Counted from the stretch's first letter, positions 39,657 to 64,000 are shown. The stretch is 64,000 nt of DNA from Bdellovibrionales bacterium (GCA_965261545.1 CBDHDF010000002.1:576001-640000), one strand, 5' to 3'. The notes: generated from the sequence alone by a model not told the origin. Made by a program: numbers and translations.

Positions 39657-39849
39657 AGCTTACCTCCTCCGCTCATATTTTCTTCTTCTCATCTTGATAT
39701 AAGAATATGTAATATATATTATATGTACACTCTGGTTAAGGTGAAAACGCTGACTTGGATTTATGGACTTTATGCCTGTAAACGGAATTCTAAACTCATC
39801 CAAATCATCTCTGGATCATCATCAAAAACTTAAGACCTTTTGTAAGTAC

Positions 39850-40110: not shown

Positions 40111-40395
40111 CGGCGTCGAAATTAGGCCCATTTTTTGTTGATAAAGTCGGATATACCCATTTTATTGAGAGTGGTCCAAGTCAAAACGATTTTATAATAA
40201 ATTTATTTTTTATGTATTTTTTTGATCACAGACCCTTATCATTTAATTTTATTCAACCGAGTGATGAGTATAAACTTTAATAAGTGAACTCATGAATGTT
40301 TCTGGATCAACAACAAATGCAAATCCAAATTATTGATGGAATATTTTTCTATCATAATGATGGGTGTCTAAAAAAATGAGAAGGAAGCAACAACT

Positions 40396-42408: not shown

Positions 42409-42568
42409 CTGTTAGGCGACAGTAGCTACCTGAAATTTCCTTTTTGGGATTTCAGGAAGTAAGAGCGTACCCACTCATCGAGTCTCGGACTGGCTTTCAT
42501 AGATGCCTTATATGTAGCGAGAGAGAGAGAAATATATAGGATCTCATTTTATCTTATAAAGTCTCATT

Positions 42569-42619
42569 GTAACATTCATGGGCGTGGGTGGGGAAGCAAG
42601 GCGCCCCCATGAATGTTAC
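42569..42619. mobile_element. 51-bp micro-MITE with IS66-like termini
   Basis: GTAACATTCATGGG..CCCATGAATGTTAC flanked by 8-bp direct repeat GTCTCATT. Confidence 0.7.
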
Positions 42620-42859
42620 GTCTCATTTTTATCTATTAAGAATATGACGCAATTGGCCGTATAGTATAATAGTGTATAAGTATAAGATAGTTTATATTGA
42701 AAGAGCTTCATACAATAACCCAATACGAAGAGGCCACGGTATGCTTTAAAGCATACTTTATAAGTATAATCTAAGGCTTATAAGCATGTGAATACTATTA
42801 CCCCGATGGGCGGGTTCACCATCGGTGATTAAGTAGGACGTTTCGAGGGGATTGTTGTT

Positions 42860-45220
42860 TTGAAAATAAATCGACTCAAAATCTATCTAAGGTTTATAAA
42901 TAGCCCTACAAGACCCATGGGACTGAAACTTTCTGGTCTCGCTAAACTATCTGGCTTTACTCTCATATCTATGTTGGTGGCCCTTTTCATCATGGGGCTC
43001 TCCCTATCTGTTGTAGTTTCTCTGATGGTTCGTCAGGAACAAGCGTCATTTGTCTTAGATGAAAAAATTGCAATAAATCATTTAAAAGAAAAAATTATTC
43101 GTACAATGACAAACTTCGAGACATGCTCTTGTCAATTTACCACCATGAAGATCAAACTCGATTCAGACAGACCCTCTAGGATCGCTCTAAGTACTCTTCG
43201 AGACAGCTGCGAGACTTCATCTCCAGATAATATTCTTGTGAAGAACAGAGTCCCTATTCTTGGCCTCAAAGGATGGGAGGGAGCACACATCCTCGTTAAC
43301 GATTTTCAAAACATAGGAGGATATCAATACGCAGGAAAGTTTTCGGTATTTTTGAAAAATCGAGATAAAAATTATACATTGAATTTTGTCTCTTTTCCCA
43401 TAGTTGTGGAGTTGGATCCAAGATCTGTAAAAAGAGGGTCGCACTATGAAGTTAAGTTTTGCCGAACCACTAAAAATGTAAAAAAGGAAGCAACAATATG
43501 GGACTGTTTGAACATAGATTCCTTGGCGAATCAGTCTGAAGGGAAAACCCTCTTTGGTTGTGGAGGCACCATAGAGAACTCCCACCCCCATAGCACGTCT
43601 TTTGGCTTTGGTGCGGGAGTATCTTCAGGGGCTGGGGACAATACCTATTTTGGTTATTTCGCAGGAAATGGACACAGTGGGATGAAAAGTACTTTTGTGG
43701 GTTATTCGGGAGGGGAGCTTGCGGGGAGTGCTGTGGCAAACACGGTCGTTGGCTATCATGCGGGAAGGAAGGCCCAAGGTGGGGAGCAGGTTCTTGTGGG
43801 TGTTTCAGCAGGGAAAGAGTCCACAGGAGAGCAAAATGTTATCATAGGAGCCGACGAAGCCGTCCAAAAAGAAAAAGGAAGCAACAGAAGTGTCATTTTA
43901 TCTTACCAGACCGAAGACGAGATTAGCGGGCTAGTGTTTTGGAATTTTAATTATAATCAAGAGGCCCATGACAATGTTATTCTTGGTGGGTTCAATCATG
44001 CATACGGTAATAAGGGTGAAAATGTAACCTTGGGTTACAGATCATGCCAAAATTTTAAAAAAAAGGGTCATATTTGTGTAGGTACATTGGCAGGAGCTTC
44101 TGGAAGTACAAATAATAGAAATATTTTTATAGGTAAGGAGAGTGGGTACTTGAGTGGAGGTGATGACAATATCTTCATAGGTGTTGAGGCGGGTCGAGAC
44201 CAAAGTGATAGAAGTGAGAAGAATGTTTTCTTAGGGTACGGAGCGGGAACTACGAATCAAGACAACGGCTCAGCAAATGCAGACAAAAATACATTCTTGG
44301 GAAATGGCACAGGAAATGGTGGCGGCATTTGGCGCTTTAACACATTGGTGGGGGCAAATATAGGATACACATCTAGTCAGACCATAAAGAATAATGTTGT
44401 TGTAGGTGCTCAAGCGCTTCTCAGAATGAAAGATAACCGTGGGAACGTCGTATTGGGTCATAACTCCCTGAACAATACTCACAAGGATCATACAAATGAG
44501 CATAGTATTTTTATAGGGCAGGGAGTGGAAAGATCATCTGTTGATATGGCCGCTTCTTCTGAATTCGCTGTGGGATCCTCTGACGCCTCAAGGTGGTTGA
44601 CAGGAACGATTGGAAGTGAGCTTTATGTCAATGGTGTTTCGGTGACTCCCCCTGCAAGCTCTCGACGATTAAAGAAAAACATCCATCCGGTGAAGAGTAT
44701 CAAGCAGTATGTAGATAGCCTTATTGAATCACCCCTATTTACCTATCAGTACAAAGATAAGAATCTTCATCCCAAAAAGGTTCGTATGGGATTTATTTCT
44801 GAAGAACTTCCTGAACATTTACAGATCAAGAAAGAAGGACAACTCTCCTATCCGGATTGGCCGAGTATTTATGGGTCTTTCTGGTCGAGTATTCAATATC
44901 TTTATGGTATGTTAAAGAGTTTTCAAGGAGATATCTTCTTTGAGGCAAAGAAATTAGCAGATCATATGCAATCTTTTGAGGACAAGCAAAGTCGTTTTAT
45001 GGAAAAGACCATGGGTTCTAAAAAAGAACTTTTAGAGATGAAGACACACCTCTCCCAGGCGTCCCAAGAGCTTGAGGATACCAAGAAAGATCTTATGGAA
45101 TTGAAAGAAAGCATAAAGAAGAATTGGAAAGAGGTGGAAGAAAGGTTTCCTAAAATGAAAAAATGGGCAAAATCAAAATCAGCATCCATATCTTTAAGTG
45201 ATGGAGTTTTCCATGAATGA
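42860..45220 (+). CDS. Pilin-like/fibre/S74-chaperone protein A1
   Basis: G|FTLISMLVALFIMG; CSCQF; GxxAG repeats; SSRRLKKNI..PLFTYQY..MGFISEELP; coiled-coil tail. Confidence 0.85.
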   Translation: MKINRLKIYLRFINSPTRPMGLKLSGLAKLSGFTLISMLVALFIMGLSLSVVVSLMVRQEQASFVLDEKIAINHLKEKIIRTMTNFETCSCQFTTMKIKLDSDRPSRIALSTLRDSCETSSPDNILVKNRVPILGLKGWEGAHILVNDFQNIGGYQYAGKFSVFLKNRDKNYTLNFVSFPIVVELDPRSVKRGSHYEVKFCRTTKNVKKEATIWDCLNIDSLANQSEGKTLFGCGGTIENSHPHSTSFGFGAGVSSGAGDNTYFGYFAGNGHSGMKSTFVGYSGGELAGSAVANTVVGYHAGRKAQGGEQVLVGVSAGKESTGEQNVIIGADEAVQKEKGSNRSVILSYQTEDEISGLVFWNFNYNQEAHDNVILGGFNHAYGNKGENVTLGYRSCQNFKKKGHICVGTLAGASGSTNNRNIFIGKESGYLSGGDDNIFIGVEAGRDQSDRSEKNVFLGYGAGTTNQDNGSANADKNTFLGNGTGNGGGIWRFNTLVGANIGYTSSQTIKNNVVVGAQALLRMKDNRGNVVLGHNSLNNTHKDHTNEHSIFIGQGVERSSVDMAASSEFAVGSSDASRWLTGTIGSELYVNGVSVTPPASSRRLKKNIHPVKSIKQYVDSLIESPLFTYQYKDKNLHPKKVRMGFISEELPEHLQIKKEGQLSYPDWPSIYGSFWSSIQYLYGMLKSFQGDIFFEAKKLADHMQSFEDKQSRFMEKTMGSKKELLEMKTHLSQASQELEDTKKDLMELKESIKKNWKEVEERFPKMKKWAKSKSASISLSDGVFHE

Positions 45221-47840
45221 CCTGGGGCCATGGAGCGTGATGGCCTTAATTTCTCAAAGGGGAATTTCTCTCATATCCTCTTTGATAGCTTTGTTTGTCG
45301 TTAGCATGGGTTCCCTGGCCTTTATCTCTATGCGAGTGGGTCAAGAAAAAGAAGCCCTCGCTTTAAAACAGAAGCTCGCCAATATTCATTTGGAATCCTC
45401 GATCACAGAAGTTTTTTACAATGGTTTTTGTTCTTGTCATTTTGATGCCAGTATCAACAGAATCACTCCTTCAGGGAGTCTTCTCTTGGACACAGCTCAA
45501 CTCAGCAATATAAATTTGGGGGTTATCAGACCAAATTGTGTGTTTAAAAGCAGTAAGACTGATCTTGTAAAGTCCAATACGCGATTGCGAAATGGGGGAG
45601 GTTTGGTGGTGAAGGACATTATGGTGAAAGATTTAATGTCCATAGGATCAAGAGGATCCGTCAATGAGTACTCTGGAAATCTCGTGATAAGCTACAAGGA
45701 ATCCAGTCAGGTACGTCTCCTTGAGCCCATATCTATACCTCTCATTTTTTCTGTGGATCCGACTTCAAAAGCTTTTTCTACCAAAAAACCAATTCAATAC
45801 TGCTGGGAGGAGGGTGTCCATTATGATGATGGGCCTGAATGTCTTCAACTGGGAGAAGACAATGCAATTCTACATTCTGAGAGAACGAGTCTCCTTGGCT
45901 GTGGTGTCACAATAAAATCGACAAAGAAAGAGAAGACAGCCCTAGGCTTTGATGTGGCAGCTCAGAACTGGGGTTCTCAGGGCAAAACAAACGTAAGTGT
46001 GGGTACCTACCTGGGTTTTCAATCTGGGAACCAAACCCCCCGAGATAGAGAGGGGACACAGGAGAAAAATACTTTTTTAGGTTTTAAATCGGGTGATAAA
46101 ATAACGGATTCCGACTTAACTATGATTGGTTATCATTCAACCCCACCCCATGGTGGAGATATTAGCAAATTTGTATGGATAGGAGTGGATATAGGGAAAG
46201 GGAAGAATGATAAGAAGGACGGCTTAAACAGTTATGGTGTCGTGATAGGTAGCCATGCAGGAGAAGTGCCAAATACGCATGCTATCTTTGTGGGAACAGA
46301 GGCTGGACGCAACGCCAACTCAGGGATTATCTTAGGTGATCAAGCGGGACTTCATGCTGCTAATCATGGTAGTGGTTACCATGAGGAGCAAATATTTATA
46401 GGAACTAGAGCCGGCTTGAATCGACGCATCAGAGGTACGAGCCGTGGCCTTCTTCGTACCAACGATGTTATTATTGGCCACGAGGCTGGAGTGAATGTTG
46501 GAACAATTAGGCTTTGGAAAGATAAAATTTATCTTCTTGCGAAAGGAGTTAATAAGGGGGACCCCGTTGTCATGGCGGGAGATCGTATTTTAATCGGTCA
46601 GGGTGCTGGCCAGGCTGGAGGGGGCCTTGGTTTGATGATAGGTTTTGAGGCTGGTCAAAAGGATTTTTCTGGACTCAATTCTTTTGATTATGAGACATAT
46701 ATGAGGGACGGGGTTGAAAGAAATGTAGTAGTTTCTATGAGTTTCTTAATCTTTAAGGATGAAAGTAAAAATGATCATACAATAAATCTAAGTAATACAG
46801 TTCGAGCTTATGGTGCGAATTTCTTTGTGGGCGGGCAGTCAGGCTCCAATTTTATAAGGGGGATGATGAATACTTTTTTAGGTTTTCAATCTGGATATTC
46901 AAAGCTAGGTGGAGACAGTAATACCTATATTGGAGCCTTTGCAGGCTACAGTGATGGCACAGATTCACATTCACATAACAATACCTGTATCGGTTGGAAA
47001 TCTTGCTATGCCAACCAAGGGAGTGTGACGATGCCCTTTTCTTTGCCTTCTGGCATAAAGGTTGTTGCCTGGCGTCAGGATGAGGAGTCAATTCGAACAG
47101 GAAGCAAGAACACCATCCTCGGGGCCCTTGCTGGAAAGGCGAATATCCATGGTTCTCACAATATACTTATTGGCAAAGGAGTGGGATCTTCAGCGATGTA
47201 TAGCGATATTAATAATAAATTCATGGTGGGCACTGAAAATAACCAAGAATGGTTGAGCGGAGATATCAATGCAACATCAACACTGTCAGTCAACGGGGCA
47301 GCTTTAACCACCCCAAGTTCAAGGGCCTTGAAGAAAAATATAGTTCCTGTGAAGAATTTTAAAAAATACCTTCAATCTATACTGGAAACTCCACTTTTTA
47401 CTTATCAATACAAAGAGTTGAACCTCCACCCCGACAAAGTGCGTATGGGTGTTATTTCTGAGGAACTTCCTAAATACTTACAAATCAAACAGAAGGGAAG
47501 ATTGTCTCGTCCTGATTGGCCAAGTATCTATGGGGTTTTTGCAGCCAGTATCAAGTGGATTTATGAATCGACCATGACTCTTGAGAAAACCATGCTCACC
47601 AAGTTGAATGAATTTATGAACTCATTGGATCAACTTGAAAGAGGGTATAAAAATATGAAGAAAGATGTTGATAGATGGATGAAAACTATAAATGTGACAA
47701 AAAATCATATCAAGCAATCTAAAAAGGTGATCAAAGAAATGAGAGGTGAAATATCAAAGACAAAATCTTACACACAAAGAAAATGGGAAGAACTCATAGG
47801 CGATGATCCACGAGAAGATAAAGGTGAGTCCCATGAATAA
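45198..47840 (+). CDS. Pilin-like/fibre/S74-chaperone protein B1 (likely start 45213)
   Basis: G|ISLISSLIALFVV; CSCHF; SSRALKKNI. Confidence 0.85.
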   Translation: MMEFSMNDLGPWSVMALISQRGISLISSLIALFVVSMGSLAFISMRVGQEKEALALKQKLANIHLESSITEVFYNGFCSCHFDASINRITPSGSLLLDTAQLSNINLGVIRPNCVFKSSKTDLVKSNTRLRNGGGLVVKDIMVKDLMSIGSRGSVNEYSGNLVISYKESSQVRLLEPISIPLIFSVDPTSKAFSTKKPIQYCWEEGVHYDDGPECLQLGEDNAILHSERTSLLGCGVTIKSTKKEKTALGFDVAAQNWGSQGKTNVSVGTYLGFQSGNQTPRDREGTQEKNTFLGFKSGDKITDSDLTMIGYHSTPPHGGDISKFVWIGVDIGKGKNDKKDGLNSYGVVIGSHAGEVPNTHAIFVGTEAGRNANSGIILGDQAGLHAANHGSGYHEEQIFIGTRAGLNRRIRGTSRGLLRTNDVIIGHEAGVNVGTIRLWKDKIYLLAKGVNKGDPVVMAGDRILIGQGAGQAGGGLGLMIGFEAGQKDFSGLNSFDYETYMRDGVERNVVVSMSFLIFKDESKNDHTINLSNTVRAYGANFFVGGQSGSNFIRGMMNTFLGFQSGYSKLGGDSNTYIGAFAGYSDGTDSHSHNNTCIGWKSCYANQGSVTMPFSLPSGIKVVAWRQDEESIRTGSKNTILGALAGKANIHGSHNILIGKGVGSSAMYSDINNKFMVGTENNQEWLSGDINATSTLSVNGAALTTPSSRALKKNIVPVKNFKKYLQSILETPLFTYQYKELNLHPDKVRMGVISEELPKYLQIKQKGRLSRPDWPSIYGVFAASIKWIYESTMTLEKTMLTKLNEFMNSLDQLERGYKNMKKDVDRWMKTINVTKNHIKQSKKVIKEMRGEISKTKSYTQRKWEELIGDDPREDKGESHE

Positions 47841-50256
47841 TGTTTCTCAAGAACATTATGGCTTTGCCATGGTTTCCGCGCTCTTATTTATTTTTCTTAT
47901 GGGTCTATCTATGTTGTCTTTTTTATCCAAGGTTAATATGAGGGATAAAGACAACCTTGGTTTAGCTAAGGATATTCGAAAGCAGCGTGTTGAGTTATCT
48001 GTTAAAAAAATGATGAATCATAAGAGATGCCTATGTCATTTTGATCCAGCACAAAATACTTCAGTTTCTGTACCACTGGGAATTGATACAGTGAATTTTC
48101 ATGATATTCCATTGGGCATCATAAGAAAAGATTGTGATTTTAGTTCCTCCGATAATGTTCTTATTCAAAATGGAAGTGCTTTGGGCAAAGGTTTTGCGGT
48201 CGATAAAATCAAGGTGACGAACCTTAGGGGCCAACGAGGCTCCTACCGATCCTATTTGGGGGAAATTCTCATCACTTATTCAAGCCAAAACAATAGAGAA
48301 AGACCCCCTTCCCCCTCTTCGATTCCCCTCGTTTTTGTCGTTAACGACAATATGGGAACGGATGAAAACCGACCTGTTTTGTCCTGTTGGAGCGCTGCTT
48401 ACTCAACTCCTAAAGAGTTGGCATTATTTGATGAATCTTGTTACTTTGTAGATGAAGAGGCCGATACGACGCAGGATCCAGATGCGAAGTCGAAGGGTCG
48501 GATTCTTGTGGGCTGTGAGGGAACCGTAGGTACCACAAATGCCCCTCGCCCTCCAACGACCACGGCCTTTGGATTTCAGGCTGGAAAATCTCTCACGGAT
48601 CCTGCCCATATAGGAAATACTTATTTTGGGTATCAAGCAGGAATGAATCACCAAGGAGATAAAACCACAATGATAGGTTACATGGCAGGTAAAATGTCTG
48701 ATTCTGCAAAAAGTATAAGTGTACGAAAAAGTAATTTTATTGGATATCGTGCAGGGGAGTCTTTGATCGAGGGTGAAAATTTACATTTTGTGGGAGCCGA
48801 GGCCGGTCTCAATACAGTGGTGGCCAACAATAATATTTTTGTGGGTGCTTCGGCGGGGAAGAACCACACCAAGGGAAATAGGAATGTGTTTTTGGGTTAT
48901 GCAGCGGGGAGAGATGGTTTTCCAGATCCTGCATCCAGTGACACCATCGATGACAATATTCTTGTGGGATATAAGGCGGGGTTAAAGAACAGGGGAGATC
49001 GAAATATTTTTATTGGCTCTCAGGCGGGAGAGGCCAATATAGATGGTTCAGGTTCTGTGGTGATGGGTTTTCAATCAGGTCAGAAAAATAGTTCCATCGA
49101 CAAGAGTGTTCTTATAGGATATGAGGTGGGAAAGAAGAGTCAAGGAGGTGAATACTCCGTGTTTATAGGTCATAGGGCTGGAAGAGAAAATACAGGAGAT
49201 AAAAATACATTTGTAGGTAATTCTTCTGGGTTGAAGAATAAAAGTGGCCAAGAGAATGCTTTTTCAGGGCATGAATCAGGTAAATCCAATACCACGGGTT
49301 CACAAAATACTTTTATTGGAGCTTCTGCGGGGCAGAAGAACACATCGGGTTCCTACAATACTTTTGTAGGAAAAGAGGCAGGGGCTGCCAATACGACAGG
49401 GGATGCAAACACCATGATTGGTATGCAAGCAGGGGCTCAGAATACCACAGGAAGCAATAATATATATATAGGGTTTGGTGCTGCCAATATCAGTGACACC
49501 GATACTTATAAGACGGGTAGCAATCAATTTGTTGTTGGTAATAGTACGAATAAAACTTGGTTGACGGGAGAGATGACTTTCACAGGGGATCTTTTTGTGG
49601 AGGTGGGGGGGGCCAAGATCAAAGCCGGGTCGGCTGCAAGTTCACGTTTTCTGAAAAAGAATATTCGGCCTGTCACCGACTTTAGGAAATACTTAGATGA
49701 TATCTTAGATACTCCTCTTTTTACATATCAATATAAGGACCCCATGAATCACCCCCATAAGACACGCATGGGAATTATCTCTGAGGAACTGCCCGAGCAT
49801 TTACAAATCAAAAGCAAGGTACGAATTCTTGATGGTATCACAGATGAAATATCCCGTCCCGATTGGCCCAGTATCTATGGCTATTTTTGGGCTGGTCTCA
49901 AGGCTCTCCATCAAATAAAAACAGAGTTGGAAGAAGATCTTCTTTCAAAGATTCAAGATTTTCTCTCTCGGATTCAATCCATCAAGGAGAAGCAAGTTCG
50001 CTTTATTGAGGTATGGACCCAGAATAAAAAAGAAATGTCATCGATTCAATCCAAGCTCCATCAGGTGAATCGAGAAATGGAGCAGGTCCAACGGGAAATC
50101 GTCAAGACAAGAAAGGATTTTGATAGGGATTGGGAGGAATTGATGGCAAGAATTTCTTCCTCCCGGTCGGCTTCTTCTTCTATGCCACCCCCACCTTCAC
50201 TCTCGTCCTCGGCTTCTTCTTCTGTGCGCCCCTACCCACCTTCGTCATCACCATGA
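47803..50256 (+). CDS. Pilin-like/fibre/S74-chaperone protein C1 (likely start 47833)
   Basis: G|FAMVSALLFIFLMG; CLCHF; regular NTFVG..AG..NTTG repeats; SSRFLKKNI; Ser/Pro tail. Confidence 0.85.
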   Translation: MIHEKIKVSPMNNVSQEHYGFAMVSALLFIFLMGLSMLSFLSKVNMRDKDNLGLAKDIRKQRVELSVKKMMNHKRCLCHFDPAQNTSVSVPLGIDTVNFHDIPLGIIRKDCDFSSSDNVLIQNGSALGKGFAVDKIKVTNLRGQRGSYRSYLGEILITYSSQNNRERPPSPSSIPLVFVVNDNMGTDENRPVLSCWSAAYSTPKELALFDESCYFVDEEADTTQDPDAKSKGRILVGCEGTVGTTNAPRPPTTTAFGFQAGKSLTDPAHIGNTYFGYQAGMNHQGDKTTMIGYMAGKMSDSAKSISVRKSNFIGYRAGESLIEGENLHFVGAEAGLNTVVANNNIFVGASAGKNHTKGNRNVFLGYAAGRDGFPDPASSDTIDDNILVGYKAGLKNRGDRNIFIGSQAGEANIDGSGSVVMGFQSGQKNSSIDKSVLIGYEVGKKSQGGEYSVFIGHRAGRENTGDKNTFVGNSSGLKNKSGQENAFSGHESGKSNTTGSQNTFIGASAGQKNTSGSYNTFVGKEAGAANTTGDANTMIGMQAGAQNTTGSNNIYIGFGAANISDTDTYKTGSNQFVVGNSTNKTWLTGEMTFTGDLFVEVGGAKIKAGSAASSRFLKKNIRPVTDFRKYLDDILDTPLFTYQYKDPMNHPHKTRMGIISEELPEHLQIKSKVRILDGITDEISRPDWPSIYGYFWAGLKALHQIKTELEEDLLSKIQDFLSRIQSIKEKQVRFIEVWTQNKKEMSSIQSKLHQVNREMEQVQREIVKTRKDFDRDWEELMARISSSRSASSSMPPPPSLSSSASSSVRPYPPSSSP

Positions 50257-50904
50257 TGTGATATCCTGATATCCCCCACCCCCGACTGCTGTCGTGACCC
50301 CCTTTGGTCGTATCGTCAGATAGTTGAAATTCATAGAGGTTGAAATCCAACAGAGTGTGAAATCCAACAGAGTGTGAAAAATGTGAGTATTGTGAACTGT
50401 TCTCATTATGAATGTTACAGTAGTTCCTGTCCAGGGAAGAAAGTTAAGTAGTTTTAAGTATTTACATGCCTTCCCTTTAGATTTTATGCTTTAAAATGGA
50501 GTCCATCAAACATAATCCGTGTAAATTCAGTTACTTACATAAAACGGAAAAATAAAATAAGTTCCCCCCCCCCCTCCTCTCTCTTGACGAACCTTTCACA
50601 GCCCCTCCCTTTCAGTGACTTATGTGGCTATCAACTACGTTACTTGATATGAGAGGAAGAGTTGGATCAACCTGTGTTTCCACCGTGGTGATTTCAAACC
50701 TCCTTCAGACCCGGAGGGGCGGACAAAACCATCCATTTGTGGGCTAACAAAACCATCCATTTAGGGTGATCTGACAAGATGGGCTCAGCCTACATTTAAT
50801 TTTTTATCTTGACAAGTCGGTTTGAAGCTTCCTTCAATCGGTAGCTTTTTCCCTCAAATTTTAATAGTTGGCTGCAGTGGAGAAGGCGATCCAGGATGGC
50901 AGAG

Positions 50905-52184
50905 TATAGTGGACCCCAAAAACAGACTGGTTGCTAAGTTACACCGCAGCGGGTAAAAAGCCCCTCATAGGAGGGGATAATGAGAAAGAAACACAGCGCA
51001 CAATTTAAGGCCAGAGTCGCACTTGACGCCATTCGTGAGACTGACACAATGGCAGAGTTGGCCTCCAAGCATGGAGTTCACCGCATCCAAATCCAAGATT
51101 GGAAGAAGCAAGCTATTGAAGCCATTCCTAAGGCCTTAGCGAGCAAAAAAAAGGACAACAACGAGGTAGAAGAACAAAGAAAAACCATTGATGAATTGTA
51201 TCGGCAAATAGGGCAGTTAAAGGTTGAAAATGATTGGTTAAAAAAAAAATCTGAGAGCTTCAATGCCTGAGAAAAAAGCCGCTATCAATTGGAAACATCC
51301 AAATATTTGTGTCACTCGCCAATGTGAGTTGCTAGGACTCTCTAAGGGAGCCTTGTACTACAAGCCCATACCTGAGAGTGCCTACAACTTAAAACTGATG
51401 AGTTTAATTGACAAACAGTACTTGGAGACCCCTTTTTATGGGAGCCGTAAAATGGCAGCTCACTTAAGACTTAATGGCCATGGGGTCAACCGCAAGAGGA
51501 TTCAGCGGCTCATGGAAAAGATGTGTCTTTTCGCTATCTTCCCAGGTCCAAACACCAGTCAGCGAAACCATCAGCATAAGGTTTATCCCTACCTACTTAA
51601 GGGGCTTAATATCTGCTCCCCCAACCAAGTGTGGGCTACTGATATTACTTTTATAAGGTTGTCTGGTGGCTTTGCTTACTTGGTAGCTGTGATAGATTGG
51701 TTTAGCCGATTTGTTCTGTCTTGGAGACTTTCTAATAGCCTTGAGACAACTTTTTGTTTAGAAGTCTTTGAGGAAGCCATAGAAACATTTGGTTGCCCTG
51801 ATATCGTCAATACTGATCAAGGGTGCCAATTCACTTCTGAGGTTTTCACAAAATTATTGAAAAATCATGGAATCTCGATCAGTATGGACGGCAAAGGCAG
51901 GTGTTTAGACAACATTATGATCGAGCGGCTTTGGCGGTCTGTTAAGTACGAAGAGGTTTACTTGAAAGGCTATCAAGACAAATCAATGGTTCAAGCCAAC
52001 AAAGGTTTTAAAACGTATTTTAATTTTTATAATAATAAAAGGCCACACCAGTCTCTTCAGGATTGCACCCCTTATCAGGTGCATATGGGAGAGGTGGATT
52101 TAACACATTAACACGGGGCTTCTTTGTGCGCTGTGGTGTAGCTTAAAAATCAAGTTTTTCAGTCTGACATTGGGGTCCACCTCA
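50905..52184 (+). mobile_element. IS3-family IS copy 2 (orfA 50980..51270, orfB 51263..52111)
   Basis: Same proteins and ends as 4469..5748; TSD GAG inside istB. Confidence 0.93.
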
Positions 52185-52550
52185 GAGGCCACGGTATTAT
52201 CGCCCAAACACTTTCCCCAGTCCTCAATAATGCGATTGGAGGTAATAAGAGTGCTTTTTCTCGCTGAGTATCGATCCAGAATGATTTCCTGGAAGTCATC
52301 GCAAGCCTCTGGCGGAATGCGCTTTCTAAGAAAAAGATCATCAATGATCAACAGGTCCACATGGATGAGTTGGGTGTAGAACCTCTTTCTGCGCCCCAGC
52401 TGCCTGGCCTCAAAGAGATTTTCAAAGAGCTTGTGAGCTTCTTGATACAAAACCTTGTAATTTGATATGGAACAGACCTTGGTGGCTATAGCTTTTGCAA
52501 TGTGGCTTTTTCCAGTTCCAGGGGAGCCAATAAGCAAGGCTCCCTCCCCC

Positions 52551-55104: not shown

Positions 55105-55664
55105 GCCCATCGGGGCGCTATTTTACGAAATGAGTGACCTGCTATAATTAATGTTAATATCTCTTCTTGTTTTTGTTTATTCAAGACGTTCATCCTTCCC
55201 TCCCAGGTTGTTTTCTAGAAGGTATTTTACAATACGCCTTGTCAGATATTAAATTTTAAATGGCCTGGTTTGCCCTCCCCTCCGGGCACATTCATAAATT
55301 CATTCTCTAGGTCCTTTCTAGGGAATCTCTTAATTTCTTTATGGGTCAGACAAATGTCAAAATGATTGTGCATTTTGAAATAATACCAAGGCGATCTTCT
55401 TTGTACAGAAAAATTTTGAATATTCATGATTTTTTTTCACTCTACTGATAGCTATGAATCTCAGGTATAGCCTGAATTTTTGGATTTGCCTCTTGTCTGG
55501 AACTCTTCGCACGAAGAGTTCCCTCCATGAAATATTCATGCTGTGGCCCTTGTCATAATAGAGAGTTCTTTTCCGTTCGCTCAGACTAGACTATGGTCGT
55601 GTGAAAGGGATGCCAACTTCATCCCCTCCGCCTAGCCAAATTTTACTTTCAGTCAGAACTCACA

Positions 55665-55823
55665 AAGAAAGTATCAGGTTGCTTCAGGACAGCAAAAATG
55701 GCAAAGCACTTTTGTCGGATTACCAGTTATGTCAAGACTATGAGAAACAAGGGGTTCTCTTCCTTAGAGGCCATCAATATGGCTCTCAAGGGAGAAATTC
55801 CTATGTAAGGTGCGAGCAGTTAC
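55665..55823 (+). mobile_element. IS66 right-end remnant
   Basis: KKVSGCFRT..FCRITSYVKT and terminus GAGCAGTTAC. Confidence 0.7.
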
Positions 55824-56222
55824 GTTTTAAGAGGTATGTAAAGAATGCCGTTTGTGCCTATAATTGTGTTGTCTTGGCAAGACATGAATTATCAACTGTC
55901 ACCTAAATTTATCCATTAGGAATAACAGCAATGGACCAGGTCGAAGGTGCTAAAATCTTCCAAAGGTTAGGGGTGCGTCTTCAAATCGAAAAAACTAGGG
56001 CGCAAGTCGCTTAAAGACCTTTTTCCCCTTAATCTGTAGAGTTTGTGTGGCAAATCTCCAACTCTCACTCCCCCATTGAGGCATTGGGAGGCTCAATGGG
56101 GAGTGTCAGAGAACAAAAAATGGGCCTTTTTGGACAGAAACTAACTATAGACAAATGTATAGTATTTAATTATATATAATATTATAATTGATGTGTTAAA
56201 TTAATATTTATAATATTAAGTA

Positions 56223-58562
56223 ATGAAGATAATTATATGTTTATGTTGGCTCTATTCTTTTAAATTCCTTAAAGCGTGGGTGAATTTTGCCATTGGACTT
56301 TATATTTTTATTTTCTTAAGAACAAAAGCATCTGGTTTTTCTCTTATATCCATGCTCATAGCTCTTTCTATCATGGGTTTTTCCATGACGGCTCTTATTT
56401 CCCTTATGGTAAACCATGAAAAAGGCAACCTGACTTTAAATAGAAAAATGGAAAATATTCGCCTCAAAAACAATTTGATAAGAACGATAAGGGATACAGA
56501 TATATGTTCTTGTCATTTCACTTCTTCTAGAGCCACTGCCATCAATTTAGATACAAAGGGCTTAGGGGATATCACAATGGCCTCCATTCGAAGAAGCTGC
56601 GACTTTTCATCTTCCTCTAATATTCTCTTCAAGAGTGGAGCCTTTGTTCCTGGAAGCAATCAATTGAGAGTAGCTAGCATCAAGGTCACAGGCATTAAGT
56701 TTACTGGAACAAAAAATCAATATTGGGGAAATCTCACGGTCAATTATAACCAAGATAGTTTGTCTTCAATTCTTTCACCTATTTCTGTTCCCTTTACTTT
56801 CTCTGTGGACGGGACCTCAGGAACAGAGAGTGCTCGTCCCATTCAATCCTGTTGGAATACGTCAGTGGTGCAAATTCAACAGCAAGATAATAATTGTATG
56901 ACTGTGGATCCAGCAGGGCCGGAGACTAAAGGGAGAACTCTTTTGGGGTGTGGGGGAACTTCTAATGCTTCCCACAAACATAGTACGGCCTTTGGTTATG
57001 CTGCTGGGGTTTCTTCAGGAAGTGGTAATAACACTTATCTTGGTTATCGTGCGGGGACTCAACACAGTGGAAGCCAAAGTACTTTTGTGGGATACAAAGC
57101 AGGGGAGTCCGCAGGTAATGCTTCATCCAACACAGTGGTGGGATCTCATGCAGGAAGACTTGCAACAGGGGGGGAGCAGGTTCTTATAGGAATTGAGGCA
57201 GGGGAAAAGTCCACTGGAAATAAGAATGTTTTTGTAGGATACCAGACGGGGCAAAGAAATACTAGTGGAAGTAGAAATGTAGCGTTCGGTAACTCTGCAG
57301 GACGAAACAATAGCAAAAATCACGACAATGTGCTATTGGGCCATAATGCCTTTTCCCATAATTCCTTTTCATATTATGGTGACGGGAGCGAAAATGTTGT
57401 TGTGGGTGAAAGTTCGGGTCTCAGCAGCCGAAGAAGTCGAGGCATTTTTATTCAATCAAAAGGATTCGGGACGTTTCGAAATCTTGCTATAGGTGAGTTA
57501 TCAGGAGGACACGGATCAGATAATGTGGCCATAGGTTATAAGGCAATGGGTAGTAGGAAGCAGACTGCTGGCTTCAAAAATGTTGCAGTAGGACAGTGGG
57601 CTGGAAGGAACAAAACAAAAGGTGATGAAAATACTTATGTAGGATTTAGGGCAGGAGAGTCTGGTAACGGATCCAACGTTAATGAGAATACAGCTATAGG
57701 CTCATTTGCCATGATAGGGAATGTGGGTGGCAAGAAAAATGTCATGTTAGGTTTTTCGGCAGCAGAGAAATCACCTTATGGTAATGGGAATGTTTTGGTG
57801 GGCGCTGGAGCTGGGAGGTTTCTTTCTCTGAAAAATGATAGTATTTATATAGGCGATTCGGTAGCCACTACGGGTAGCACTAAAAATTCTCAATTCATTG
57901 TGGGTGTTTTGTCGTATCTAATTATGAAGCCAAGAATTTGGATAAGAGGAACCATGACTCCAACAGGCAATCTTTATATTAATGACCAGCAAGTTGCTAT
58001 AACAAGTTCTCGACACTTGAAGAAGAATCTACGTCCCGTGAGGGATGTAAAAAAATATGTGGATCATCTCATCAAAACACCCTTGTTTACCTATGAGTAC
58101 AAAAGTAAGAATCTTCATCCTAAAAAGAATCGTATGGGATTTATATCTGAGGAGCTCCCTGAAAGCCTACAGCTTAGGAGCAAAGGTCAACTGTCCCATC
58201 CCGATTGGCCAAGTATTTATGGATATTTTTGGGCAAGCATTAAGTATCTTTACGATATGTTGGAAGGCATTAGGAAGATACTCAATGTTGAAGTGAACAA
58301 AATGAAGAATCACATAAGCCTTTTTCAAGCAAAGCACGATCGATGGTTGAACAAGACCATGGCTTCTAAGCAAGCGATTGCATATCTTAGTACTCACTTA
58401 TCTCAAGTATCCCAAGAGCTTGAAGATTCCAAGCGAGATCTTAGGGAACTCAAAAGGGATATAAAAGAGCAGTGGGAAGAAATAGAGAAACAGTTTCCTG
58501 GTGGATGGGTGCTATCGAGCTTAGAAGTCAGGGAGTTTAGTGATGGGGCTCAAAATGAGTAA
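56223..58562 (+). CDS. Pilin-like/fibre/S74-chaperone protein A2
   Basis: G|FSLISMLIALSIMG; CSCHF; SSRHLKKNL; positional paralogue of A1. Confidence 0.85.
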   Translation: MKIIICLCWLYSFKFLKAWVNFAIGLYIFIFLRTKASGFSLISMLIALSIMGFSMTALISLMVNHEKGNLTLNRKMENIRLKNNLIRTIRDTDICSCHFTSSRATAINLDTKGLGDITMASIRRSCDFSSSSNILFKSGAFVPGSNQLRVASIKVTGIKFTGTKNQYWGNLTVNYNQDSLSSILSPISVPFTFSVDGTSGTESARPIQSCWNTSVVQIQQQDNNCMTVDPAGPETKGRTLLGCGGTSNASHKHSTAFGYAAGVSSGSGNNTYLGYRAGTQHSGSQSTFVGYKAGESAGNASSNTVVGSHAGRLATGGEQVLIGIEAGEKSTGNKNVFVGYQTGQRNTSGSRNVAFGNSAGRNNSKNHDNVLLGHNAFSHNSFSYYGDGSENVVVGESSGLSSRRSRGIFIQSKGFGTFRNLAIGELSGGHGSDNVAIGYKAMGSRKQTAGFKNVAVGQWAGRNKTKGDENTYVGFRAGESGNGSNVNENTAIGSFAMIGNVGGKKNVMLGFSAAEKSPYGNGNVLVGAGAGRFLSLKNDSIYIGDSVATTGSTKNSQFIVGVLSYLIMKPRIWIRGTMTPTGNLYINDQQVAITSSRHLKKNLRPVRDVKKYVDHLIKTPLFTYEYKSKNLHPKKNRMGFISEELPESLQLRSKGQLSHPDWPSIYGYFWASIKYLYDMLEGIRKILNVEVNKMKNHISLFQAKHDRWLNKTMASKQAIAYLSTHLSQVSQELEDSKRDLRELKRDIKEQWEEIEKQFPGGWVLSSLEVREFSDGAQNE

Positions 58563-60894
58563 GCCTAGGCTACCACGGAGAACGATGATATTATTATCTC
58601 CAAGGGGAATATCTCTTGTATCTGCCTTGGTAGCTATGACTGTAATTGGTATGGCTGCACTTTCTTTTGTCTCCATGGAAGTGAGTCAAAAAAAAGAAAG
58701 TATTCTTTTAAAGCAAAGGCTCACTCATATTGGTTTGGAATCATTTATAACACAGACCTTGTATACGGGAACTTGCTCCTGTCACTTTGACCCTACTGTG
58801 AATACGTCAGCAGCTGCGGGGACACTCAATCTTAATACAAGTACATTGGCTGATATTAATTTGCAATCCATACGAACAGGCTGTGCGTTTAGTAGTGATG
58901 ACAATGTAATTCTAAAGGTCAACAAGGAGGTTCCTGACAGTGTAGGTCTTATTGTGAGCCGCATTGCTGTCAAGAATTTAACACCCACAGGAAGCACCGA
59001 TGAATACTCTGGAAATCTTGTTGTCAACTACACGAAATCGAGCCAAAAGCGTCTCCTCAATCCCATTTCTATACCCCTCATTTTTTCTATTGATTCCACA
59101 TTGGGAACTCCCTTGGCAAGGTCCATTCAATCTTGTTGGAAAGATAAATTGACACAAGATCAATATCCTCCTGAATGTGCTCAAATGACGGGGGATGGCC
59201 AGAAGAATCATCTTGTGGGGTGTCAGATATCACAGCCCCCCTTTTACGGAAATACAACACTTGGCTTTAACTCGGGAGTGACGGGGCAGTTTGATTGGAA
59301 TAGAAAAGGAACCAGCTTAGGCTTTCAGGCCGGGAAAGGAAAGTATATAGGCCAAGAGCGAGGGTACCTGAGTTCTTCTGAGAATACTCTCTTAGGTTTT
59401 AAGTCAGCCAATAGATTTGGAGGTGGTCGCCGTTTAACTCTCATTGGTCCTCAATTCATAGGTCCGGTTATGGCTAATGGGGCCCCTAACAAGACAGATG
59501 AAGCAACATTGATTGGTTTGAATATGGGACGTGACTATGTTCTAAGTACAAGGGCGACTGTAGCTATAGGCACTGATTCGGGACGAAACCCCTCAAAAAA
59601 ATTTCTCGCCGTTCATAAGTCTCTTTTTATTGGCACTAGTACTGTTGGCAACGGTCACCAAGATCCCCGCCAAACGATCATAGGTTACCAGGCAAAGGCA
59701 AGGCCAAAGATCGAGAATATCTCTGAGACCACATCCATTGGAACGCAAGCAAAATCAAAGTATGGAATATCTATTGGTCACAATAGTGGGAATAATTCTT
59801 CAAGAGGCCTTTTCATCGGTAGTGGTGCTGGAAAAAATACACTTATTGAGAACGTGCTGGCAATTGGTTTTGAAGCATCTCCAAAACAGCAGTCTACTGG
59901 AGATTATAATACTTTTTTAGGTGCAAGATCGGCTCATAACTTTGTGGGTGGGGGGCCACCTGGATCCTTTGTCTATGCCTATCATTTGAGTTCTGGATGG
60001 AATACTGCTTCCATCGCTGGGGATGGGGCGAGGAATGTGTTTATCGGTGCTGACTCTGGGCTTTCGCTGGTATCTGGAGGCTACAATCTCTACGTAGGTG
60101 CTTCTTCAGCTTCTTATGTTGTCCATAGCAGCAAGAATGTTTGTATAGGTTGGAATTCTTGTAAAAAAGCCACAACTTCCATAGGAGGTAATACCATAAT
60201 AGGAGCTGATGCTGGAACGGGAATTGGTGGGCGTAGCAATATATATATTGGTTATGGCGTGGGAAAAGCAGGAACTCATCAGAGTCATTATGATGATCGA
60301 TTTGTGTTGGGAACCCACAATCGTGACCAATGGCTGAATGGATCAATGGATATACTTTCAACACTTTATGTCAATAACAGGCCGCTAAACACAGCAAGTT
60401 CAAGGGCTTTAAAGAAAAACATAGGCTCTGTAATGAATCTTAAAAAATACTTTCAATTTATACTAAAAACCCCTCTCTTTACCTATCAATACAAAGATCC
60501 CAGTCGTTATCCTGACAAAATACGCATGGGTGTGATCTCTGAGGAGCTTCCTAACTATTTGCAAATTAAAAAAGAAGGGGAACTCTCTCAACCCGATTGG
60601 GTAAGTATCTATGGACTCTTTGCGGCCAGCATTAAATGGATATACAACTCTATCATAATTTCCGAGAAAATTGCGTTTGATAAAGTGAAAGCATTCACAG
60701 ATTTATTAATTGACCTTGGACAGAATGACAAGAATATGAATGCGGATATGGATCAATGGACTAAAGATTTTGCCATAGCAAAGAATCATATCCATACTTC
60801 GAAAAGTAAGATGAAAAAAGTAAGAGGTCAAATATCAGATGTGAGAAATTATATAAGGAAAAAATGGAAAATTTTTTATGATCAGAGTCAATAA
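58540..60894 (+). CDS. Pilin-like/fibre/S74-chaperone protein B2 (likely start 58555)
   Basis: G|ISLVSALVAMTVIG; CSCHF; SSRALKKNI; paralogue of B1. Confidence 0.85.
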   Translation: MMGLKMSKPRLPRRTMILLSPRGISLVSALVAMTVIGMAALSFVSMEVSQKKESILLKQRLTHIGLESFITQTLYTGTCSCHFDPTVNTSAAAGTLNLNTSTLADINLQSIRTGCAFSSDDNVILKVNKEVPDSVGLIVSRIAVKNLTPTGSTDEYSGNLVVNYTKSSQKRLLNPISIPLIFSIDSTLGTPLARSIQSCWKDKLTQDQYPPECAQMTGDGQKNHLVGCQISQPPFYGNTTLGFNSGVTGQFDWNRKGTSLGFQAGKGKYIGQERGYLSSSENTLLGFKSANRFGGGRRLTLIGPQFIGPVMANGAPNKTDEATLIGLNMGRDYVLSTRATVAIGTDSGRNPSKKFLAVHKSLFIGTSTVGNGHQDPRQTIIGYQAKARPKIENISETTSIGTQAKSKYGISIGHNSGNNSSRGLFIGSGAGKNTLIENVLAIGFEASPKQQSTGDYNTFLGARSAHNFVGGGPPGSFVYAYHLSSGWNTASIAGDGARNVFIGADSGLSLVSGGYNLYVGASSASYVVHSSKNVCIGWNSCKKATTSIGGNTIIGADAGTGIGGRSNIYIGYGVGKAGTHQSHYDDRFVLGTHNRDQWLNGSMDILSTLYVNNRPLNTASSRALKKNIGSVMNLKKYFQFILKTPLFTYQYKDPSRYPDKIRMGVISEELPNYLQIKKEGELSQPDWVSIYGLFAASIKWIYNSIIISEKIAFDKVKAFTDLLIDLGQNDKNMNADMDQWTKDFAIAKNHIHTSKSKMKKVRGQISDVRNYIRKKWKIFYDQSQ

Positions 60895-63169
60895 AAACCA
60901 TATCAATAAAAATCATGGTTTCGCCATCACATCCATTCTCTTGGCCATTTCTATTATGAGTACTTCCATGTTGTCTTTTTTATCACGATTGAACATAAGT
61001 CATAAAGAAACCAATGAATTGGCTAAAAAATTTAGAAGTCGTAGCATTGAGATGGTTGTTAACCAATTAATGGACAATGATCGATGCTCTTGTCACTTTG
61101 ATCCCACAAAAAATACAGAGACTTCCACCTCCTCGCTGAGTATCAATACAGTGCAACCACAGGATATCTCACTGGGAAGTATAAGGTCAGGTTGTGATTT
61201 CACTTCTTCTAATAACATTTTCCTTAAAAATGGAACCTCTGTGGGCGAAGGTTTGGTCGTGGATAAAATCAAGGTATCTAGTATTAAGGCTGCAACCAAT
61301 TCTCAAAATGTTTTTAATGGGAATATAGTCATTAGTTATTCGAGTCAAAATACAACATCCATACCAAGTGCTTCTTTAATTCCCATGACCTTTACTATTG
61401 ATACCAATGAAGGGTCCAATCAAAGTCGGCCCATAAAAGCTTGCATGAGTTCAAAATATCATCTTTTATTGTCATCATCATCAGGATCTTGCTATCTCTT
61501 TGATACAAGTATGACTGATAAGAGTGGAGGCCGGACTCTTATAGGCTGTGGAGGTAGTGTGAGTACAGATCGTGCAAGGTTTACCACAGCCTTTGGTTTT
61601 AGGGCTGGAAGTTCCACCGTATCTCACATAGGAAATACCTACTTTGGATATGAATCAGGACTCAAACACGACGGCGAAAAAACCACCATGGTGGGTTATA
61701 AGACTGGAAGGCTTGCCACATCCCTAAAACAGAGTACTCTTATTGGATATCGGGCTGGAGAGCAAACTCAATCAGGTCAAAACTTCTACGCTATTGGAGC
61801 TGAGGCGGGTACCAATACACAGTTTGGAAATGAGAATATTTTTATAGGGACTCTGGCGGGAAATAATAATAGGCAGGGATCTAGAAATATTTACCTGGGT
61901 CATGAGGCAGGCCGATATGGAATACGTGGCAATGACAATATTTTTGCAGGATATCAGGCTGGTCTCCAGAATCGTGGATCTCGAAATATTTTCATAGGCT
62001 CCAGAGCGGGACAAAAGAATCTCACAGGGGAAGACTCTGTCCTGATAGGTTGTCAAGCAGGACTTTCCAATACGTTCATCCATAAAAGTGTTTTTATGGG
62101 GTATCAAGCAGGAAAGTCCAGTCAAGGAGGTCAATCTTCTACTCTTATTGGTTATCAGACAGGTTTCAATAATAAGGCAGCTAAAAATACATTTATAGGT
62201 AATTATTCTGGATATAATAATAAGAAAGGTCATCATAATGTTTTTGTGGGGCACGCCTCAGGTCAGAAAAACACAACCGGCTCATACAATACTTTTTTAG
62301 GAACTTATGCAGGGTACCAAAATAAGATAGGTTCTTACAATACTTTTGCGGGAAATAGATCGGGCTACAATAACACTAGGGGGCAAGGTAATACCTTCAT
62401 GGGATATAAGGCCGGAGCTAGTAACACCACAGGAAGTTATAATGTATTCATAGGCCATCAGGCCGCCAACAACTCCAACTACTCCACTGCCAGTTATAAG
62501 CTTGTTATTGGTAGTCCCAGTGCAAAAACTTGGATGACCGGTGATATTACGGCTACGGGAGGTCTTTATATCAATGGTCAGGAGGTAGGTAGTCCTCCTT
62601 CTTCCAAGTTTTTAAAGAAAAATATTCGGCCTGTGACCAACTTTAAGAAGTACTTAAACAGTGTGCTCAAGACTCCTCTTTTCACATATCAGTACAAAAG
62701 TTCCATGAATTTTCCCCACAAAACTCGTATGGGAATCATCTCTGAGGAGTTACCCAAACAACTACAGATCGTGCCCAAGGGGAAGCTTTCCCATCCAGAT
62801 TGGCCTAGTATTTACGGTTATTTTTGGGCCAGCTTTAAAGCTCTCCATGAGATCAGGCAAGAGTTGAAGAACACACTTCTTTTAAGAATCCAAGATTCTC
62901 TTTTACAACTTAAGTTCATAAAGGAGAAACAAGCTCGTTTTATTGAGAAATGGATTCACAATAGACAGAAAATGTCGTTGATCCAGTCTGAAATTCGACG
63001 GGTGTATGAAGAAATGGAGCAGGTGAAAAAAGAAACAGCACAGGTCAAAAAGAACTTTGACAGAGATTGGGAAAATTTAATGATTAGGCTTTCTCCTTCA
63101 CCTCTCTCACCATCGCAACCTTCCCCATCATCCACCACTTCTTCTTCGATCGTAGATGCGAGGAACTAG
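60878..63169 (+). CDS. Pilin-like/fibre/S74-chaperone protein C2
   Basis: G|FAITSILLAISIM; CSCHF; SSKFLKKNI; Ser/Pro tail; paralogue of C1. Confidence 0.85.
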   Translation: MIRVNKNHINKNHGFAITSILLAISIMSTSMLSFLSRLNISHKETNELAKKFRSRSIEMVVNQLMDNDRCSCHFDPTKNTETSTSSLSINTVQPQDISLGSIRSGCDFTSSNNIFLKNGTSVGEGLVVDKIKVSSIKAATNSQNVFNGNIVISYSSQNTTSIPSASLIPMTFTIDTNEGSNQSRPIKACMSSKYHLLLSSSSGSCYLFDTSMTDKSGGRTLIGCGGSVSTDRARFTTAFGFRAGSSTVSHIGNTYFGYESGLKHDGEKTTMVGYKTGRLATSLKQSTLIGYRAGEQTQSGQNFYAIGAEAGTNTQFGNENIFIGTLAGNNNRQGSRNIYLGHEAGRYGIRGNDNIFAGYQAGLQNRGSRNIFIGSRAGQKNLTGEDSVLIGCQAGLSNTFIHKSVFMGYQAGKSSQGGQSSTLIGYQTGFNNKAAKNTFIGNYSGYNNKKGHHNVFVGHASGQKNTTGSYNTFLGTYAGYQNKIGSYNTFAGNRSGYNNTRGQGNTFMGYKAGASNTTGSYNVFIGHQAANNSNYSTASYKLVIGSPSAKTWMTGDITATGGLYINGQEVGSPPSSKFLKKNIRPVTNFKKYLNSVLKTPLFTYQYKSSMNFPHKTRMGIISEELPKQLQIVPKGKLSHPDWPSIYGYFWASFKALHEIRQELKNTLLLRIQDSLLQLKFIKEKQARFIEKWIHNRQKMSLIQSEIRRVYEEMEQVKKETAQVKKNFDRDWENLMIRLSPSPLSPSQPSPSSTTSSSIVDARN

Positions 63170-63529: not shown

Positions 63530-64000
63530 CCCCGATGGGCGGGTTAAACCAGGCCATTTGTGGGCGGGCAAACCAGGCCATTTAGGGCGATCTGACAAGA
63601 TGGGCTCACCCTACATTTAATTTTTTATCTTGACAAGTCGGTTTGAAGCTTCCTTCAATCGGTAGCTTTTTCCCTCAAATTTTAATAGTTGGCTGCAGTG
63701 GAGAAGGCGATCCAGGATGGCAGAGGCCACGGTATTATCGCCCAAACACTTTCCCCAGTCCTCAATAATGCGATTGGAGGTAATAAGAGTGCTTTTTCTC
63801 GCTGAGTATCGATCCAGAATGATTTCCTGGAAGTCATCGCAAGCCTCTGGCGGAATGCGCTTTCTAAGAAAAAGATCATCAATGATCAATAGGTCCACAT
63901 GGATGAGTTGGGTGTAGAACCTCTTTCTGCGCCCCAGCTGCCTGGCCTCAAAGAGATTTTCAAAGAGCTTGTGAGCTTCCTGATACAAAACCTTGTAATT
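63530..64000 (-). mobile_element. istB: IS21 family C right end with istB 3' part (63617..>64000)
   Basis: LLIIDDL, ITSNR, AILDRLLH; end repeats AAACCAGGCCATTT. Confidence 0.85.

Follow-up and report, generated by a model that had tools for sequence, protein, structure and literature searches.

Modular type IV pilins in which an N-terminal pilin motif is fused to a peptidase S74 domain have been catalogued before (PMC8179133); Dataset S1 of Raynaud et al. 2021 holds 29 pilin-S74 proteins (IPR012902-IPR030392) and four more with IPR008640 in between. In the accessible part of that paper, S74 is read as a peptidase, fibres, trimers, operons and Bdellovibrionales do not come up, and no member is tested. 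The same fusion is found in six genes of a Bdellovibrionales bacterium, within a stretch of 64,000 nucleotides (GCA_965261545.1 CBDHDF010000002.1:576001-640000) that is designated as the window and whose positions are counted from its first letter. These genes form two overlapping triplets, A1-B1-C1 and A2-B2-C2, and a first-pass annotation of the window had proposed that each triplet supplies the three chains of one fibre displayed on a pilus tip. Given that the fusion is already counted in InterPro (PMC8179133), its novelty as such falls away.

Trimeric surface fibres are known from the same bacterial order. The MAT fibres of Bdellovibrio bacteriovorus are trimeric, 13 of 21 end in a self-cleaving S74 domain, and a possible interplay of the fibres with type IV pili has been raised (Caulton et al. 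2024, PMC10769870). The triplets share S74 and the bacterial order with them. However, the MAT N-terminus is described as a signal peptide and a beta-rich domain of ~130 amino acids (aa) (PMC10769870), whereas the triplet chains begin with a prepilin-like leader and a helix-first domain; judged from this description, a MAT-type N-terminus is absent from the triplet chains. The S74 motif also differs, being SDxxxK in MAT proteins and SSxxxK in the triplets. In the main text of the MAT paper, the words pilin, operon and heterotrimer are absent, and its supplementary strain tables may list such proteins.

Other precedents are found at the tips of pili. CofB of the enterotoxigenic Escherichia coli CFA/III pilus and TcpB from the toxin-coregulated pilus of Vibrio cholerae likewise consist of a pilin domain and beta-rich C-terminal modules and form a trimer at the pilus tip with three helically placed pilin domains (PMC9565799, PMC7248040); the TcpB homotrimer, which uses Glu5, was modelled in place of three helically arranged TcpA subunits (PMC9565799). 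Unlike the triplets, CofB and TcpB are type IVb proteins, each encoded by one gene, that form homotrimers and have neither an S74 chaperone nor a long repeat fibre, and TcpB carries Glu5. Judged by analogy, the triplets may work like CofB and TcpB, but we do not file them as members of that group; neither protein was among the matches listed in our fold search or in our sequence search of solved structures. Tips of different pilins are also known: GspI, GspJ and GspK form a staggered heterotrimer (PMC7248040), and PilA, PilB and PilC of Streptococcus sanguinis are likewise three different pilins in a staggered tip complex. In both systems, unlike here, the chains differ in size, only some have extra domains, and there is no three-fold fibre. 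Myxococcus, also a predator, has four paralogous three-gene kilLMN clusters in its Kil (Tad) system, which are predicted to provide heterotrimeric, interchangeable minor-pilin tips (Tip1-4; PMC12075869). These are Tad pilins with one large tip chain, whereas in the present triplets the three paralogous chains are equally long, begin with type IVa-like leaders and would form a fibre folded by S74.

A precedent exists for every part of the architecture; none is apparent for the combination or for the recurrence of triplets. Beyond the InterPro count of the fusion, neither a mixed-chain S74 fibre nor this family was found in our literature searches, from which most subscription journals were out of reach. 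The subject bears on the use of type IV pili by Bdellovibrio-like predators to hold on to prey and on what pilus tips contain, and the family would supply, within one polypeptide, the link between fibre and pilus that was raised in the MAT study. Should the triplets prove to be genuine heterotrimers, they would represent, within the reach of our searches, the first S74-chaperoned fibres of three different chains. They would then offer a simple system in which a disposable coiled coil selects the chains, and a natural one-gene versus three-gene series from a CofB/TcpB-type homotrimeric tip to a GspIJK-type tip.

Architecture of the triplet proteins

The plus strand of the window holds six open reading frames (ORFs) of 763-880 aa, listed below with the Gly that ends the leader, the Ser of the S74 motif and the start of the C-terminal coiled coil.

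42860-45220, + strand: A1, 786 aa; TTG start, alternative ATG at 42917; Gly32 (leader end) at 42953; pilin-like domain 42956-43468; Gly-rich repeats ~43550-44656; S74 Ser600 at 44657, with Lys605; coiled coil from 44879
45198-47840, + strand: B1, 880 aa; likely start ATG at 45213, overlapping the A1 stop; Gly22 at 45261; S74 Ser707 at 47316; coiled coil from 47538
47803-50256, + strand: C1, 817 aa; likely start ATG at 47833, overlapping the B1 stop; Gly20 at 47860; S74 Ser613 at 49639; coiled coil from 49885
56223-58562, + strand: A2, 779 aa; Gly38 at 56334; pilin-like domain 56337-56858 (174 aa); repeats ~56940-58004; S74 Ser595 at 58005; coiled coil from 58227
58540-60894, + strand: B2, 784 aa; likely start ATG at 58555, overlapping the A2 stop; Gly23 at 58606; pilin-like domain 58609-59142; S74 Ser620 at 60397; coiled coil from 60619
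60878-63169, + strand: C2, 763 aa; Gly14 at 60917; pilin-like domain 60920-61450; 17-residue repeats, the most regular of the six; S74 Ser575 at 62600; coiled coil from 62822

Start and stop codons overlap as ATGAATGA at 45213 (A1/B1), ATGAATAA at 47833 (B1/C1) and ATGAGTAA at 58555 (A2/B2), and the B2/C2 overlap comprises 17 bases from 60878. The six proteins of like layout in overlapping triplets that the first-pass annotation had described were thus all recovered, with their ORFs, lengths, motifs and overlap sequences. The two triplets are not contiguous, with insertion sequences in between. All six chains align end to end; each has a hydrophobic stretch directly after the Gly, then CxC[H/Q]F and a later GC, and the motifs S-S-[R/K]-x-L-K-K-N, PLFTY.Y and MG.ISEELP are likewise found in 6/6.

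A leader ending in Gly and followed by ~21 hydrophobic residues is present in the alignment of all 12 copies that the host genome contains. The leaders of A2 and A3 are long (38 and 31 aa; A2: 56223-56336; A3: L041 6089-6181) and have hydrophobic stretches, which is unusual for class III signal peptides. Among the window chains, the Pfam profile N_methyl (cut-off 21.2 bits) matched two of six, both weakly (A1, 17.7 bits; A2, 20.8 bits), and that of S74 (cut-off 22 bits) matched six of six, five of them over the cut-off and A2 with 15.8 bits. In a six-frame search of the genome, the four A-class genes all exceeded the N_methyl cut-off, one B-class gene fell below it and no C-class gene was listed, while PF13884 was over the cut-off near the C-terminus in 12/12, in one case only together with neighbours in frame. 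The pilin ancestry of the leader, but not its use, is settled because many homologues keep a canonical G|FSLxE leader, and these pass N_methyl.

An AlphaFold model of the A2 N-terminal domain (174 aa, 39 sequences; mean predicted local distance difference test score (pLDDT) 93.8) consists of a helix of 51 residues (2-52), a short helix and a beta-sheet, in outline a type IV pilin. Together with the N_methyl matches, this model agrees with the pilin-like N-terminus noted in the first-pass annotation. The fold match to pilins is suggestive only: in a structure search with the model, 7 of the 18 top rows were type IV pilins or pseudopilins, the best of them being XcpV at Z 4.4 (root mean square deviation (rmsd) 3.3, 82 aligned), and the weak matches included XcpV, EpsJ, GspK, PilA and PilB. 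Foldseek at E<=0.001 returned no match for this domain or for a full-length A1 model.

The S74 motif contains a Ser..Lys(+5) dyad (e.g., Ser600/Lys605 in A1) ahead of the C-terminal coiled coil, with the same spacing as in MyRF (S587/K592) and endoNF (S911/K916) (PMC8326128), and Ser at +1 replaces the usual Asp (S-S here versus S-D in the Bdellovibrio MAT consensus). Thus, the S74 chaperone recognized in the first-pass annotation stands, given the Pfam matches and the dyad. Pfam matches of the C-terminal region to Bacillus_HBL, KxDL, THOC7 and others were all under the cut-off and were rejected as coiled-coil noise.

Without leader and S74, the predicted chains comprise 567, 684, 592, 556, 596 and 560 residues (A1, B1, C1, A2, B2 and C2, respectively). 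Their Gly-rich repeats are spaced mostly by 16-17 residues, and B1 has the longest insertions in the repeat region of the six-chain alignment. Repeat turns number 15-18 in 11 of the 12 A, B and C chains, A1 having been wrongly delimited, versus 6-41 across the family. The full-length A1 monomer model is of low confidence (pLDDT 50.7) and matches parallel beta-helices (best Z 12.8, rmsd 4.2, 223 aligned), and a profile search of solved structures gave a weak match to the YadA head (E 0.024) and otherwise coiled coils and weak solenoids. On these results, the middle region is predicted to be a solenoid of 16-17-residue turns, which may be of either handedness.

Triplets in the host genome and gene number in relatives

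The genome (4.3 Mb, 96.8% complete) contains 12 S74 matches, all in four A-B-C triplets, with no single gene and no missing member, so that the strict triplets described for the window hold at 4/4 loci. Apart from those in the window, two triplets are located on C7:

C7 320089-327097: triplet in the order A-B-C
C7 426754-433639: triplet in the order A-B-C

As in known heterotrimeric minor-pilin tips, three linked, different pilin genes are kept as a set at all four loci, and separate triplet systems occur elsewhere. A, B and C form separate clades in both the N-terminal and the C-terminal tree, with copies 3 and 4 paired within each. Chains of the same class are 37-65% identical over the aligned length, and the pilin domains of different classes 22-39%. 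The coils, which are equally long and gapless and all end at the same place, have identities of 34-69% inside their own class and of 11-25% to the other classes, while the S74 cores are 53-86% identical throughout the 12 chains. An assembly artefact as the source of the copies was ruled out, the 12 genes being only 25-65% identical. In the N-terminal tree, proteins of other assemblies stand beside A (P0004), C (P0003, P0124 and P0126) and, weakly, B (P0125).

Nine further genes in the genome have the same N-terminal pilin domain but no S74. In these stand-alone genes (C11 1008640-1009656; L053-L060; C10:660819), the domain lacks Glu5 and is followed by unrelated or truncated tails, and several adjoin insertion sequences. 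Pfam matches and ORF reading identified pilB-pilT-pilC-like, pilD-pilMNOPQ-like (pilD-like gene at C7:492521-492766) and pilA-like genes, and further ATPases and secretins that we read as Tad-type; a type II secretion system (T2SS) cluster is also present with its own GspG-K-like pseudopilins. A FimU/PilV/PilW/PilX-like cluster was not found in the genome by a motif scan or with PilX_N, which matched the GspK-like gene only.

Relatives were sought in several genome sets. A first scan gave 20 loci in seven genomes, all with the leader-repeats-S74-coil layout. In a search of 109 genomes of the family, strong full-length matches were confined to two genera; of 384 genomes of the order, 31 gave matches at E<=1e-25, which in many cases covered no more than the repeats or the pilin domain. 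Cultured Bdellovibrio strains (family f10) were among those with matches to short members. One scan of the Joint Genome Institute metagenome collection gave 262 pattern matches, none of which was confirmed as a relative. S74-bearing triplets were found once in genome G128 and twice, in tandem, in G088. The three genes of G128 (X1-X3) have orthologues in G061, split there over two contig ends; pilin helices of the same position are 74-88% identical across the two genomes and those of different positions 36-56%, while the S74 cores are 93-96% identical within one genome. In the two tandem I-II-III sets of G088, identities are 61-73% for the same position and 42-45% across positions, the S74 motifs are canonical S-D, and each triplet has one chain without Glu5. 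Triplets of this pilin domain also occur with tails of other kinds: G063 has repeats without S74, G335 has beta-solenoids of the YdcK type, likewise without S74, and G105, G090, G092 and G001 have short Cys-rich domains. Among the G335 loci (L115, L143, L137 and L138) are Glu5-less triplets that are the nearest to the A-B-C system, and two further loci are pairs with a split first gene.

A census of 132 matches in 10 genomes hand-picked for many matches gave 16 triplets (14 opened and two by coordinates), eight pairs (in one case at a contig end, in two with the first gene split), 64 matches standing alone, of which some were weak or lay on short contigs, and not a single run of four or five; one T2SS cluster and one unopened cluster of three short matches were left out. 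In a FastTree tree of 60 pilin domains, the sequences group by triplet system and not by position; in an IQ-TREE tree of 24 of these domains, four triplets appear as starred clades, and a single clade of first-position genes, hence one common origin by position for all triplets, was rejected (p-AU 9e-65). The trees and identities support the view that triplets with a distinct member for each position originated, or have been retained, separately in more than one lineage of the pilin family. Either many triplications would have stopped at three, or an old triplet would have been homogenised within operons; both point to a structure with three slots, but neither proves a 1:1:1 complex.

Two features of the single genes and arrays were observed in addition. 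G120 has an array of ~14 non-overlapping pilin-repeat-S74 genes, some of them broken (C7 ~822000-887000; L092-L095), with very different repeat numbers, repetitive N-terminal extensions and S74 cores that are 88-100% identical (13 compared). Behind a single-gene fibre pilin there often lies a Cys-rich gene that overlaps it and whose product looks secreted (L006 11854-13476; similar in L010 and L013-L019); the one tested has a Vint/Hint domain, and by analogy with CofJ or TcpF the product could be a tip-carried partner.

A proposed trimeric tip pilin and the rival explanations

We lean, with modest confidence, towards the reading that the genes of a triplet supply the three different chains of a single trimeric tip pilin for a type IV filament, most likely type IVa; this confidence extends to the whole chain of steps that follows. 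Reasoning from the known tips, it is the best reading of singles and triplets together and the simplest, a homotrimer if there is one gene and a 1:1:1 complex if there are three. The overlapping genes would be made in roughly equal amounts, the pilin helix would insert each chain in the inner membrane, and PilD, for which a gene is present, would cut the leader after the Gly of the motif. In the periplasm, A, B and C would meet through their C-terminal coils and their S74 domains, which would zip the repeats into a three-stranded beta-solenoid fibre; the trimer step follows solved S74 proteins by analogy, and we infer the choice of A, B and C. In MyRF, trimerisation is driven by the C-terminal coiled coil and cleavage requires the trimer (PMC8326128), and for this reason the class-specific coil is where chain choice would sit. 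The S74 domains would then self-cleave before the Ser and leave chains of 556-684 aa, whose three pilin feet would occupy the three staggered top positions of the filament, prime its assembly and display the fibre. In single-gene members, the same protein would take each of the three positions, as is the case for CofB and TcpB, and the triplets would be versions with a separate gene for each tip position. Since the three feet would lie in non-equivalent places at the filament end, splitting one gene into three would let each adapt. By analogy with Myxococcus Tip1-4 and the MAT fibres, the four triplets may serve as interchangeable tips that adhere to different surfaces or prey.

A stronger form of this proposal is plausible but more tentative: the complexes would be obligate 1:1:1 S74-folded heterotrimers, with the coil choosing chains before self-cleavage, and the family would be a Bdellovibrionales-wide one-or-three set of minor pilins that primes type IVa pili in place of FimU/PilV/PilW/PilX-PilY1. 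With both the obligate heterotrimer and the priming role, predators would possess, in addition to the MAT fibres, a second repertoire of adhesins that is carried on pili.

A number of observations weigh against the trimeric tip pilin of three different chains. None of the 20 loci of the first scan has an adjacent partner, although one lies at a contig end and one has a broken copy 4 kb away, and the S74-bearing loci opened later comprised about nine singles, two complete pairs (S74 called by Pfam in one and inferred from the coil tail in the other), two contig-end pairs, the G120 array and the three triplets. Homotrimers must therefore work, and gene number is not fixed. Homologues that are mostly single or variable in number had been named at the outset as a result that would speak against the heterotrimer, and this is in part what was found; yet triplets recur in separate lineages. 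Picking the genomes by hand biased the census, triplets that are related to one another do not count as independent, and what looks like separate origins could result from gene conversion within operons. Mature position 5 is Ser in 11 of the 12 copies, Ala in one and Glu in none, while several other triplets retain Glu5 in two or three chains. Tip pilins without Glu5 exist (GspK/PilX), and GspI and GspJ keep it; the likeness to GspI/J/K drawn at the outset holds for the three linked, different pilin genes and is imperfect at this residue. The structure search with the A2 pilin model gave no Z above 5.0, and its top row was a baseplate chain of a type VI secretion system (Z 5.0). The pilus machinery genes do not adjoin the triplets. 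The coil tests, which are crude and rest on our own heptad assignment, gave a layer-volume complementarity no better than shuffled (P 0.29-0.92), complementarity being visible by eye in no more than two layers (T/V,M,L,R/W and S/W/N,H), and net e-g charge pairs of 36 for AAA, 20 for ABC, 12 for CCC and 9 for BBB. The 1:1:1 fibre proposed in the first-pass annotation is thus not favoured over AAA by the coils. A complex prediction for the A2, B2 and C2 pilin domains scored 0.08 against a mark of 0.32 with the controls not folded, which is no evidence either way.

Some of these results would fit co-expressed, independent homotrimers (A3, B3 and C3, three like chains each) or random mixtures, each tipping a pilus, with the triplet going back to an old tandem triplication that was duplicated en bloc in a genome rich in insertion sequences. 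Most members have one gene, there are also pairs and a long array, the A coils exhibit the best self charge complementarity, the near-identical G128 chaperones could not tell chains apart, and the insertion sequences that fill the window could copy blocks. We nevertheless regard independent homotrimers as rather unlikely, since each of the four old copies (37-65% identical within a class) has retained its three members and their order, triplets are more numerous than pairs and runs of four are absent in the 10 census genomes, and position-specific pilin helices are conserved across genomes.

The fibres might also stand outside the type IVa pilus, with the Glu5-less helix acting as a mere inner-membrane anchor or riding a T2SS pseudopilus or a Tad pilus. 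That B and C mostly miss the N_methyl profile, that the pilin fold match is weak and that the A2 and A3 leaders are long and partly hydrophobic would agree with this, as would the lack of Glu5 in all 12 copies, the T2SS and Tad-type ATPases and secretins in the genome and the lack of pilus machinery genes beside the triplets. However, canonical G|FSLxE leaders occur in homologues throughout the family, a separate GspG-K-like set belongs to the T2SS cluster, and it is for type IVa that the motif scan and PilX_N detected no FimU/PilV/PilW/PilX-like cluster; we consider a location outside the type IVa pilus improbable. Least probable, in our view, are silent or spare cassettes for recombination-driven tip variation, in which the number three would have no structural meaning. 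The G120 array with its repeats, broken copies and near-identical tails and the homogenisation of S74 cores within genomes are what such cassettes would leave, but all 12 genes in the host genome are intact, with leaders and start-to-stop overlaps, and their classes, 22-39% identical in the pilin domain, are too distant for easy exchange.

Surroundings of the triplets in the window

Between and beside the triplets, the following features were identified.

50980-54998, no strand assigned: insertion sequences between the triplets (Pfam), outside the system
50980-52111: IS3-type orfA/orfB (Pfam)
52100-52537: IstB fragment (Pfam)
52653-54998: DDE transposase with a DruA-domain N-terminus (Pfam)
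56154-56173, + strand: 20-base AT-rich element, 69 bases before the first ATG of A2

The AT-rich element has only two copies in the genome (<=2 mismatches), each 69 bases before a first ATG, namely those of A2 and of A3 on C7, and is a candidate promoter part or a relic of duplication. Scans of 42300-62000 for promoters and terminators were at chance level (44 versus 44.2 expected and 19 versus 17.4 expected, respectively).

Three DUF285 lipoprotein-like surface genes lie just upstream of triplet 1 (34620-42408), two of them with PKD over the cut-off, and similar-looking genes flank triplet 4 (C7 421450-423213 and 433662-444432), which suggests surface-protein islands at triplets 1 and 4. Positions 1-34000, 50980-54998 and 63617-64000 of the window consist almost entirely of insertion sequences (IS3, IS21, IS256, IS110 and IS4/IS5-type DDE), many of which are identical to copies elsewhere in the genome. 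The DDE transposase with the N-terminal DruA (Druantia) Pfam domain is multi-copy, at 52653-54998 and 291-1868 and as a fragment near 23019-23309. At 25407-27435, an RNA domain of a group II intron (Rfam RF02005, 135.6 bits) precedes a reverse transcriptase gene that is broken into fragments, and a Gp49/RelE-like gene with an addiction-module antidote-like gene at 3701-4304 is a probable toxin-antitoxin pair.

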